Shown: positions 54,001 to 57,000 of the stretch, piece by piece | How the letters are laid out: the number at the start of each line of letters is the position of its first letter | How positions within the stretch are numbered: position 1 is the stretch's first letter | Assembly (NCBI RefSeq): GCF_003018255.1 | Contig: NZ_CP027441.1 | Reading direction: 5' to 3' (one strand) | DNA: 64,000 nt | Origin: Escherichia coli | Lineage (GTDB): Bacteria > Pseudomonadota > Gammaproteobacteria > Enterobacterales > Enterobacteriaceae | Made by a program: the position numbers

Positions 54001-57000
54001 TCCGTGAACGGTTTTCCTGCTGCCTCAAGCTCTGCACGGGCCTGATTCAGTGCTGCCGGGTTCCGCTTCGCTTTCTAGCTATCTGTCCTTCCGTTCTGGC
54101 AATATCCGCCACCTGACTGCCTATATCACTGATAAGCCCCACTGTCTGCAGACGCCTCTGCTCCTTCTCCTTGTCAAATATCGGGCTGATACTGTCATTA
54201 GCGTGCGCAGGATCACGGCTGAGGTCTGCCGGATTCTGCTTCTGATTGTCCCTGTCCCGGATGGTGATAGTGCCTTCTGCCACTGCGGCCTGAGTCGTTC
54301 CTTCCGCATGTCCGCTGTAACTTCCGGCTGATATCATGCCACCCGGCATGTTACCCTGAAATTTATCCCCGAAACTGCCACCACCGCTCAGACTGATCCG
54401 GGGGTTGAGGCTCAGTGGAACAATAACCGCCGTTAAGCGGTCATTTTAAATAGCCAAAAATCAACCAGCCAATTTACATCGTGAATCTGCGTTCTTGGCT
54501 ATCTGTTTTGGGGGGGCCAAGTTGGCTTCACTCATCCTAGCCGTTTGCGGAGCAAAAGACGTTGTTGATCTCAACAGATTGATTTACCTGTTATTGACCA
54601 TTCAATTGAACCGCTTAACCGCCTTTTTAGTTCCACTACTCCCCAACCCCCTATTTACATGAATGCAGCAATTCAGCAGCTCAGGCGTGAGGGGTATCCG
54701 GTCATGGATTCAGACGTTGAGAAACTGTCACCATTGCAGTGCGGGCATATTAATATGCAGGGGCGCTATTCATTTACAGTGCCAGAATCGGTCAGTAAGG
54801 GTGAGCTGAGAGCGTTCAATGAATAGATGTAATTTACTGATTAATAAATAATTGGCTATTTTAATTAACCTCTTAACGGAGTTTACTGTTCCATTGCTCC
54901 CCCTCCCCAACAGCAAACTGTTATTGTATGAAAAATAGCCTTAGCGTGGGATATTTAATGAGATGGTCACTCCCTCCTTCCAGGTACTATGCAGAGGACA
55001 GGCTTTCATTCGGAGAACTATCATGGAAAACATTGCGCTCATTGGTATCGATCTGGGTAAAAACTCTTTTCATATTCATTGCCAGGATCGTCGCGGGAAG
55101 GCTATTTACCGTAAAAAATTTACCCGGTCAAAGTTGATCGAATTTTTGGCGACATGTCCTGCTACAACCATCGCAATGGAAGCCTGTGGTGGTTCTCACT
55201 TTATGGCCCGTAAGCTGGAAGAATTGGGACATTTCCCAAAGCTGATATCACCACACATTCGTTAAAAGCAACAAAAATGATTTCGTCGATGCCGAGGCCA
55301 TCTGTGAAGCAGCATCGCGTCCATCAATGCGTTTTGTGCAACCCCGAACGGAATCTCAGCAGGCAATGCGGGCTCTGCATCGTGTTCGAGAATCCTTGGT
55401 TCAGGATAAGGTAAAAACAACTAATCAGATGCATGCTTTTTTGCTGGAATTTGGTATCAGCGTTCCACGAGGTTCTGCAGTTATTAGTCGGCTGAGCACT
55501 ATTCTTGAGGACAATAATTTACCTCTTTATCTCAGCCAGTTATTACTGAAACTACAACAACATTATCACTATCTTGTTGAGCAGATTAAAGAGCAGGAAT
55601 CCCAGTTGAAACGAAAGCTGAACGAAGATGAAGTAGGTCAACGTTTACTGAGTATTCCCTGTGTCGGAACGCTAACTGCAAGTACTATTTCAACTGAGAT
55701 TGGCGACGGGAAGCAGTATGCCAGTAGCCGAGACTTTGCCGCCGCAACAGGGTTGGTACCTCGACAATACAGCACGGGGGGGGGGCGGACAACATTGTTG
55801 GGCATCAGCAAGCGAGGCAACAAGAAGATTCGAACCTTGCTGGTTCAGTGCGCCAGAGTATTTATACAAAAACTGGAACACCAGTCAGGCAGGTTGGCCG
55901 ACTGGGTCCGGGAGTTACTGTGCCGGAAAAGTAACTTTGTCGTGACTTGCGCTCTGGCAAACAAGCTGGCCAGAATAGCCTGGGCACTAACAACACGGCA
56001 GCAAACTTACGAAGCATAGTGAGAGTTATATCAGTTTAAACAATCACTCATCTGGTTTTGCGGATACTGATTATTGATGATATGAACGGCCCACCGGCCT
56101 GTTGAGGAACCTGTGAAACGGAAAGGCTCATTGAAGCCGTATATTTTCTTGAGGTTCATCAGGCGCGGAACTCATCGAGGCGCGGGAATAAAATCCCATT
56201 CAGACGCCGGATAGATTCAAGCAAGCCCACTTATCGTCAAAATCGGTGTTGCAAAAACGGGAGTGACCATAGATTCCGTTTTCCAAGCGGCCCCCTCCTA
56301 TAGCCATCGCAATATCACGCCCTGAAGCACCACCAGAAACAGAATCTAATTCATTTAGAGTCAGAGTTCTCATATGATCTCCTTTTTATCTTATCGGATA
56401 TTGAATAATAATTATCACCAACAAAGTAACATATTGCAGACATTAATGCAGAGAAGCAAAATGTATGCATGGATAAAAAGTCCTTTCCTCTAAAAACACA
56501 ATCATATATAGCTAATGCAATATATATTGCGGTGGCATTTATTATAAATGCAAATAACAAATCTAATTTTGTTCTTTTTCTATCCATTACTTTCTATCCC
56601 ATTACCACACAAACACTAACGATAATGATTATCGTTCACATGGTCAAGAGTGAAGGGTAGGCGGCCCTCACCCCCCTATAAGGGGTCCGCTTGGAAAACG
56701 GATTTTCCCACGTCAAGAGAATTGAGTTGAACGAGTGGTTACATCCAGGCCAGCTAACTCACTGAACGTAAAGGCTGTACGAAATGTTCCGACCGTCCGA
56801 TAACCATTTGGCTTACTTCCGTACATTTCCTTGCGTAGATGTACAGAATTGTACGATTTCGGACACCAAAACCGCTGTTGTCCCGCCATTCTGGCGATTC
56901 CTGAAAGTCCTTTGGCTAAAAAATAGTCTTAACGTGGTTTATTTTCCGAATTCCAAACTGACCCCTTTAATGCTTCTTTCGTGAATCCGTTAATAAACTC

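Follow-up and report, generated by a model that had tools for sequence, protein, structure and literature searches.

A probable nest of mobile-element remnants with Tn3-family ends between a colicin V remnant and a cdiA fragment on an Escherichia coli virulence plasmid

The closest described relatives of the structures considered here belong to two classes of element. Tn3-derived miniature elements (TIMEs), of which TIME244, IS101, IMU and MITESen1 are named examples, have Tn3-related 38-bp terminal repeats around 50-500 bp without a transposase gene, with 5-bp direct repeats at their flanks; in IS101 and TIME244 the interior is derived from a resolution site. The second class is represented by the insertion sequences (IS) IS5075 and IS4321 of the IS1111 group of the IS110 family, for which PMC11187229 cites Partridge and Hall (2003). 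Elements of the IS1111 family have subterminal inverted repeats of 11-13 bp with a 7-bp extension on the left and a 3-bp extension on the right, and they use a seekRNA of 70-100 nt that comes from non-coding sequence downstream of the transposase gene and in which a segment complementary to the top strand of the target is followed by one complementary to the bottom strand, the two matches overlapping at the insertion point (PMC11187229). Here we describe a locus at which members of both classes lie together, in a 64,000-nt stretch of Escherichia coli DNA (NCBI RefSeq assembly GCF_003018255.1, contig NZ_CP027441.1), which we call the window. Within 2.6 kb it holds two miniature elements (E1 and E2), remnants of Tn3-family transposons, and a defective IS of the IS4321/IS5075 group inside one terminal repeat (Table 1). 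We consider it very probable that the region is a nested graveyard of mobile-element remnants, set between what is left of a colicin V operon and an array of orphan toxins downstream of cdiA.

Table 1. Features of the region, with their positions in the window.
Feature	Position	Strand	Description
orphan cdiA 3' fragment	53103-54399	-	VENN pre-toxin pseudogene; 5' side cut by IR1
E1	54400-54651	+	252-bp Tn3-derived miniature element (TIME-like), ends IR1 and IR2
IR1	54400-54437	+	38 bp, GGGGG at outer end
IR2	54614-54651	-	38 bp, GGGGG at outer end
tnpA remnant	54653-54826	+	last 57 codons and stop, Tn3 family; 5' side cut by IR2 end of E1
IR3	54871-54908	-	tnpA-end terminal repeat
tnpR remnant	54909-54939	+	31 bp: last 7 codons and stop of resolvase gene, reading toward IR-A
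IR-A	outer 56274-56295 (22 bp), inner 54940-54955 (16 bp)	-	repeat split by IS
IS (IS4321/IS5075 group)	54956-56273	+	1,318 bp, defective copy inside IR-A
IS subterminal repeats	54963-54974 and 56259-56270		12 bp
IS tnp gene	55023-56019		11-bp deletion after 55255
IS non-coding region	56020-56273
Predicted guide segment 1	56115-56124		GAAACGGAAA; 9 nt of target bottom strand matched, could pair with top strand across insertion point
Predicted guide segment 2	56141-56148		ATATTTTC; 8 nt of target top strand matched, could pair with bottom strand across same point
cvaC'	56296-56373	-	first 26 codons of colicin V, cut by IR-A; reads MRTLTLNELDSVSGGASGRDIAMAIG
cvi	56351-56587	-	colicin V immunity gene, apparently intact; WP_032257624.1 in identical plasmids
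IR-B	56682-56719		bounds E2
E2	56682-56965	+	284-bp miniature Tn3-family element, ends IR-B and IR-C, res-like interior
IR-C	56928-56965		bounds E2

The region is defined by six 38-bp Tn3-family terminal repeats, all within 54400-56965, which were located over the whole 64 kb with a degenerate pattern for Tn3 termini and by short-word BLAST searches with each repeat in turn. By pattern and BLAST, the window holds no further Tn3-type repeat outside these limits, bar one pattern match with a single mismatch at 31718, which we take to be chance. The repeats fall into two subgroups. IR1, IR2 and IR3 are Tn3/Tn1000-like, and agree with one another at 28-29 of 38 positions (29/38 for IR1 and IR2) and with the termini of Tn3 and Tn1000 at 25-30; for IR3, the values against IR1, IR2 and both termini are 28-29. 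The second subgroup consists of IR-A, IR-B and IR-C, which share 27-32 of 38 positions among themselves, and IR-A matches the Tn21 terminus at 31/38. The two subgroups probably answer to different transposases.

A preliminary description of the region had read IR1 and IR2 as inverted Tn3-type repeats with GGGG at their outer ends, enclosing 252 bp without a transposase in the manner of a Tn3-derived miniature element, with IR3 220 bp beyond IR2. The coordinates and the 29/38 identity bear this out, as does the membership of the 252-bp unit in a mobile family, one copy of which has a perfect 5-bp duplication (see below); the repeats also align, as expected there, with each other and with Tn3/Tn21-type termini. 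The outer end of IR-A, placed at 56294, lies instead at 56295, within a layout that is otherwise correct. Three features had gone unrecognised: the end of tnpA that separates IR2 from IR3, the cut cvaC gene and the whole of E2.

The window comes from a large plasmid of Shiga toxin-producing E. coli (STEC), a virulence plasmid that also carries ehx, sab, espP, saa, iha and subAB. Five complete plasmids, e.g. NZ_CP027372.1, match the segment 54300-57100 over its full length at 99.9% identity, and 13 further plasmids, pO104_H21 among them, match its first 2 kb (54300-56296) at 99.1-99.6%. The structure from IR1 to IR-A is thus seen in 18 independent complete plasmids, and is therefore not an assembly artefact. 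Across the window, the RefSeq annotation of NZ_CP027372.1 gives ehxCABD, sab, espP, saa, iha, subAB and a cdiBAI locus. Under the region itself, it lists as pseudogenes a VENN pre-toxin fragment, a partial Tn3-family transposase, a frameshifted IS110-family transposase and a partial cvaC, which agrees with our reading of these features as remnants; the sole non-pseudogene there is an intact cvi. Statements about the whole plasmid are based on a 175-kb proxy plasmid that is 99.9% identical to the window.

E1 measures exactly 252 bp between the outer ends of IR1 and IR2, and has neither coding capacity nor a transposase. At a coverage of at least 80%, 141 PLSDB plasmids contain members of its family, and so do 141 of 5,426 complete E. 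coli genomes, where 167 of its 174 places are on plasmids. The units are 235-255 bp long with the same ends, their identity ranges from about 74% to 100%, the hosts include Klebsiella, Enterobacter and Salmonella, and the backbones extend from 4-kb Col plasmids to IncF. Among six copies whose flanks were examined, a perfect 5-bp direct repeat (GTTTT) occurs only in a 4.4-kb Klebsiella plasmid (L016); the flanks in the window are GATCC and TATTT, which is no target duplication. L012 holds a larger remnant of this type of transposon, with a serine-resolvase gene, and the interior of E1 aligns with the intergenic sequence that separates its left repeat from tnpR (score 229 versus 65 ± 10 for shuffles, 0/500). 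E1 is therefore a TIME-type derivative that keeps the repeats and the resolvase-proximal region. It has the Tn3-related terminal repeats of a TIME and a transposase-free length within 50-500 bp; the 5-bp flanking repeats are missing in the window. The likeness of its repeats to IR3 suggests that E1 comes from the same transposon lineage as IR3.

E2 has the same general make-up, with Tn3-related repeats, a length within 50-500 bp without a transposase gene, and no 5-bp flanking repeats in the window (flanks TATAA and TTTAA). At a coverage of at least 80%, 655 plasmids carry it, as do 537 of 5,426 complete E. coli genomes (9.9%), with 1,797 of 1,831 places in those genomes on plasmids. Eight copies were examined for their flanks, and a perfect direct repeat (TATAA) was found in one, L021. 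The interior of E2 is collinear with the tnpR-tnpA intergenic region of the 3.8-kb transposon of L027, which is described below (score 160 versus 64 ± 10 for shuffles, 0/500), and TGT(A/C)CGAAA half-sites are common to both; on these grounds E2 probably carries a res site. In the window, and also in a plasmid with an intact colicin V operon (L009), E2 adjoins the cvi promoter, and this place is therefore an old boundary of the colicin V (ColV) module. RefSeq has no annotated feature under the copies of E1 or E2, among the copies listed.

At the edges of bacteriocin and immunity cassettes, E2 recurs in unrelated plasmids, namely pO111_4 (L006, 2001-2286), L009 (3001-3284) and the window; in pO111_4, it lies between colicin E2- and E3-type modules. 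Directly to the left of E2 in the window (56663-56676) stands GGCCCTCACCCCCC, all 14 bp of which recur as the outer end of a Tn1000-like terminal repeat in L008 (NZ_CP028121.1), and the ColV sequence of L009 differs from it at the homologous place. GGCCCTCACCCCCC may be the vestige of a seventh repeat, or chance.

The rarity of flanking duplications raises the question of whether E1 and E2 move at all, or whether both are internal deletion products, formed in place from full transposons and spread by descent and by recombination of plasmid segments only. Most of the copies examined have no target duplication, and many share their flanks, as E2 does beside cvi in the window and in L009, both of which would be expected of such products. 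We nevertheless consider this origin improbable, since E1 and E2 occur in unrelated backbones (4-8 kb Col, IncF, IncK and IncI plasmids; Klebsiella, Citrobacter, Enterobacter), their copies show 73-97% sequence divergence yet conserved length and ends, and one copy of each has a perfect 5-bp duplication, for which the chance is about 1/1024 per copy.

E1 and E2 share with the named TIMEs the 38-bp Tn3-family repeats and the lack of a transposase, and with IS101 and TIME244 an interior derived from a resolution site; they are 250-290 bp long and lie almost wholly on plasmids. Compared with the sequences of TIME244, IS101, IMU and MITESen1 (from Table S2 of PMC13367494), neither element has a match beyond the terminal repeats, with 30-45% global identity and no significant internal match. 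They also differ from the named TIMEs in that they have no association with resistance genes here, and E2 differs in frequency, with 9.9% of complete E. coli genomes as against the 0.06-2.3% reported for named TIMEs across Enterobacteriaceae. Printed repeat sequences of E1 or E2 were not found in the papers searched. Both appear to be unnamed, as new members of known element classes.

Between IR2 and IR3 lies the end of a Tn3-family transposase gene, which matches the NCBIfam transpos_Tn3 profile at positions 913-954 of 954 (E=2.3e-10) and is labelled by RefSeq as a partial Tn3 family transposase. The reading frame of this gene runs on, in L011 and L012, upstream of the point that is abutted by IR2 in the window. 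E1 thus interrupts tnpA with its IR2 end, and IR3 is the tnpA-side terminus of the interrupted transposon. The arrangement of tnpA end and IR3 is also present in 269 plasmids. Over its C-terminal 108 residues, the TnpA of the IR3 transposon shares 60-70% identity with the nearest full-length transposases listed (Tn3, ISEc63, Aeromonas/Pseudomonas types). About 56 TnpA matches are closer (at least 80% identity); these were partly inspected and are taken as remnants, and no intact parent of the IR3 transposon was found.

IR-A belongs to a different transposon. Its outer and inner halves, joined in that order, give the 38-bp repeat GGGGGCCGCTTGGAAAACGGAAAATATCCCACGCTAAG, which is 37/38 identical to both ends of a cryptic 3,815-bp Tn3-family transposon in NZ_CP042297.1 (29511-33325, equal to L027 6001-9815). 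That transposon has a 207-aa resolvase gene that reads toward one repeat, an intergenic region and a tnpA split into 649 + 352 aa, and the TnpA is 88% identical to a widespread 994-aa Enterobacterales TnpA; the transposon may be Tn5403-like. On the inner side of IR-A, the window reads into the tnpR remnant and then IR3. The remnant is 93.6% identical to L027 6023-6069; the 591-bp recombinase gene annotated there runs 8 bp into the repeat before it stops. The window thus resembles this transposon in the repeat and the resolvase stub, and differs in that nothing else of it is kept. The rest of the IR-A transposon has been lost, and the IR3 end of the other transposon stands in its place. About 320 bp from the 3.8-kb transposon, L027 also has a MITESen1-like copy (10137-10394), the terminal repeats of which match the published MITESen1.

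The IS occupies IR-A at the one position and in the one orientation used by the IS4321/IS5075 group. It splits the repeat into 22 + 16 bp without a duplication, and the split is the same in the Tn21-type repeats that hold copies of IS5075 (L003) and IS4321 (L004); these two, together with an intact relative of the window IS (L002), served for comparison. Its boundaries were set by the rule of 7-bp and 3-bp extensions (PMC11187229) and by alignment with the IS5075 and IS4321 copies. At its left end it reads TAATGAG + ATGGTCACTCCC and at its right end GGGAGTGACCAT + AGA, and both the left junction (…T/TAATGAG-ATGGTCACTCCC) and the right junction (GGGAGTGACCAT-AGA/TTCCGTTT…) are the same in the window IS and in all three comparison copies. 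The preliminary description had the target behaviour right and put the split at 23 bp, one more than found here, the difference being one ambiguous A; it was also correct in placing the transposase in the IS1111/IS4321 group and in seeing it broken by a short deletion, which is of 11 bp.

By the extension rule, IS5075 and IS4321 are both 1,327 bp long, which we take to be their published length as well, the intact relative is 1,326 bp and the window copy 1,318 bp. Against the intact copies, the window IS lacks the 11 bp after 55255, which causes a frameshift at codon 78, and it has a run of 10 G at 55776-55785 where the others have 7 (3 extra G). Over the segment 54300-57100, total lengths among the five near-identical plasmids vary by 1-3 bp, so homopolymer slippage or sequencing error is possible at this run. 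The transposase is of the DEDD type: the two halves of the open reading frame match NCBIfam NF033542 (IS110 family RNA-guided transposase) with E=4e-19 and 8e-62, and the intact relative does so with E=4e-103 (345 bits; cut-off 140).

At the protein level, the transposase of the intact relative has 97% identity to those of IS5075 and IS4321, as against 98.2% between the latter two. For DNA, the lineage is 90.6-90.8% identical to IS5075/IS4321, versus 93.7% between these two. Isoforms in ISfinder share at least about 95% DNA identity, and at the level seen here the lineage is therefore a separate IS within the group and not an isoform. It is like IS5075 and IS4321 in its 12-bp subterminal repeats, the 7-bp and 3-bp extensions, and the insertion point and orientation without duplication, and its intact member is within 1 bp of their length; it differs in DNA identity, and the window copy is defective. 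The curated IS1111 set in the supplement to PMC11187229 does not contain the transposase of the intact relative, and the IS is apparently an unnamed, third lineage of the IS4321/IS5075 group. Other annotated IS110-family fragments (about 24024-24458 and 48593-48760, from the proxy annotation) have no DNA similarity to it by BLAST. In L008, at about 2330-2380 of that sequence, a Tn1000-like terminal repeat cuts the same IS short in its turn, a further layer of nesting.

The non-coding region of the IS holds two predicted guide segments. ATATTTTC lies 17 nt downstream of GAAACGGAAA, and the order of the two and the overlap of their matches are as described for IS1111-family seekRNAs; in the corresponding positions, IS5075 and IS4321 carry AAAACGGAAA and TATTTTC. 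Between this lineage and IS5075/IS4321, identity is 96-97% over the distal 194 nt of the non-coding region and 89-90% over the coding sequence, a difference that speaks for constraint on an RNA. The predicted fold places the two guide segments on either side of an internal loop around a small hairpin. No Rfam family matches the IS non-coding region or the miniature elements, the lone weak match, to a snoRNA, being below threshold. Ten further intact copies of the IS, found by exact protein look-up, sit in three distinct repeats that read GGGAAACGGAA, which fits a G in the guide, unlike IS5075 and IS4321, which sit in repeats reading AGAAAACGGAA. This pattern is suggestive of covariation between the guide base and the preferred target repeat. 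The window target has an A opposite the guide G, which would give a G·T pair. The IS would have found IR-A through its seekRNA, with GAAACGGAAA and ATATTTTC pairing with opposite strands across the insertion point.

At the right border of the block, the outer end of IR-A abuts the colicin V structural gene cvaC, which is cut after codon 26, so that the junction lies at codon 26/27. The intact cvaC of L009 aligns from 56296 onward, and RefSeq annotates a partial cvaC. The colicin V remnant as a whole (56296-56660) has kept the immunity gene and lost the toxin and exporter genes. Upstream, GATAATGATTATC is a putative Fur box. In the papers searched, we found no link between truncation of cvaC/cvi and Tn3 ends.

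At the left border, positions 54099-54399 of the orphan cdiA fragment are 98% identical to 61214-61514 of the main cdiA, and 54399, the last base of this homology, directly adjoins IR1; RefSeq gives the orphan fragment, in a plasmid of 99.9% identity, as a frameshifted, N-terminally incomplete VENN pre-toxin pseudogene. The preliminary description had concluded that a Tn3-family insertion created the truncation. The end of homology at IR1 is as it stated, but a simple insertion does not fit, since there is no duplication and cdiA does not resume beyond the repeats; the truncation therefore needed an insertion and a later deletion or recombination.

A similar history would apply to the other junctions. 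A Tn3-family transposon with the order IR-tnpR-res-tnpA-IR has its resolvase-side end, IR-A, against cvaC, and each junction would have been formed by Tn3-type replicative transposition, then by adjacent deletion, inversion or recombination between element copies, which would explain why there is no local 5-bp duplication. Plasmids of the pO104_H21 type share the left flank and have another sequence to the right of IR-A, which lies close to cdiI. From the lack of duplications and this exchange of the right flank, it follows that the junctions are not simple insertions. That the 1,896 bp from 54400 to 56295 are instead a single mosaic non-autonomous transposon, moved as a unit via IR1 and IR-A, which face outward in the correct relative orientation and enclose a block kept as a unit in the 18 plasmids, much as in known mosaic elements bounded by miniature Tn3-type elements (PMC4133298, PMC13367494), is very hard to credit, since the two repeats belong to different subgroups and are only 24/38 identical, the flanks of the block (GATCC and TCCTA) form no duplication, and the two plasmid groups share the left flank and differ on the right (cvaC' versus near cdiI in pO104_H21), which fits a rearrangement at one end; on this subgroup, flank and right-end evidence, the interval from IR1 to IR-A was rejected as one composite transposon.

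Nothing in the region has the make-up of an autonomous Tn3-family transposon, with an intact tnpA for about 1,000 aa between two repeats: 57 codons of tnpA and 7 of tnpR are left. The search of the rest of the plasmid for a tnpA or tnpR that might act on these ends, which the preliminary description had proposed, was run on the annotation of the proxy plasmid, and gave no Tn3-family transposase or resolvase except the 57-codon stub, the host chromosome being outside this check. A 1,004-aa open reading frame at 12971-15985 was considered as a Tn3 transposase and rejected, as it is the enterohemolysin EhxA. With no Tn3 transposase on the plasmid and the IS transposase frameshifted, all elements therefore depend on helpers elsewhere in the cell. 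E1, E2 and the IS could be mobilised in trans, judging from their intact ends and, for the IS, from the RNA region that it has kept.

Several points weigh against the graveyard reading and the history proposed for it. The order of events is not recoverable from one sequence. No local junction has a target duplication, and insertion at the exact sites is deduced from the element ends; duplications are present in only 1/6 copies of E1 and 1/8 of E2 examined. The absence of helpers is drawn from a near-identical plasmid, and the guide segments are predicted from a sequence match and by analogy.

A broader reading, which we hold as tentative and somewhat doubtful, is that E1 and E2 are undescribed res-carrying TIME families, with E2, in about 10% of complete genomes, as the most common one in E. 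coli, that their res sites and repeats act as recombination hot spots that shuffle toxin and immunity cassettes between plasmids, and that the IS is a natural case of seekRNA fine-tuning, with one guide base covarying with the target. The hot-spot part draws on the fact that most copies have no duplications, and that E2 abuts bacteriocin and immunity modules in unrelated plasmids. The modules concerned would be cvi-cvaC (window, L009), the colicin E2/E3 cassettes (pO111_4) and the orphan cdiA-CT arrays.

The locus shows a colicin V operon and a contact-dependent inhibition locus that have been cut and joined by Tn3-family ends on an STEC plasmid. It also brings to light two very common, unannotated miniature elements that current pipelines miss, and it adds a third lineage to the IS4321/IS5075 group, the predicted guide of which differs by one base in step with the usual target. 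The mechanisms are those already known for the element classes, and the structure is a typical mosaic, of modest novelty and biologically ordinary.

To the right of the region, 57137-57538 and 58634-59035 are direct repeats on the minus strand, about 1.5 kb apart and 74-86% identical, which are probably tandem orphan cdiA-CT/immunity modules downstream of cdiA. Elsewhere in the window, at 27549-32004, a lactate permease gene and lutABC-type lactate-utilisation genes lie on the virulence plasmid, with IS3-family remnants on their flanks.

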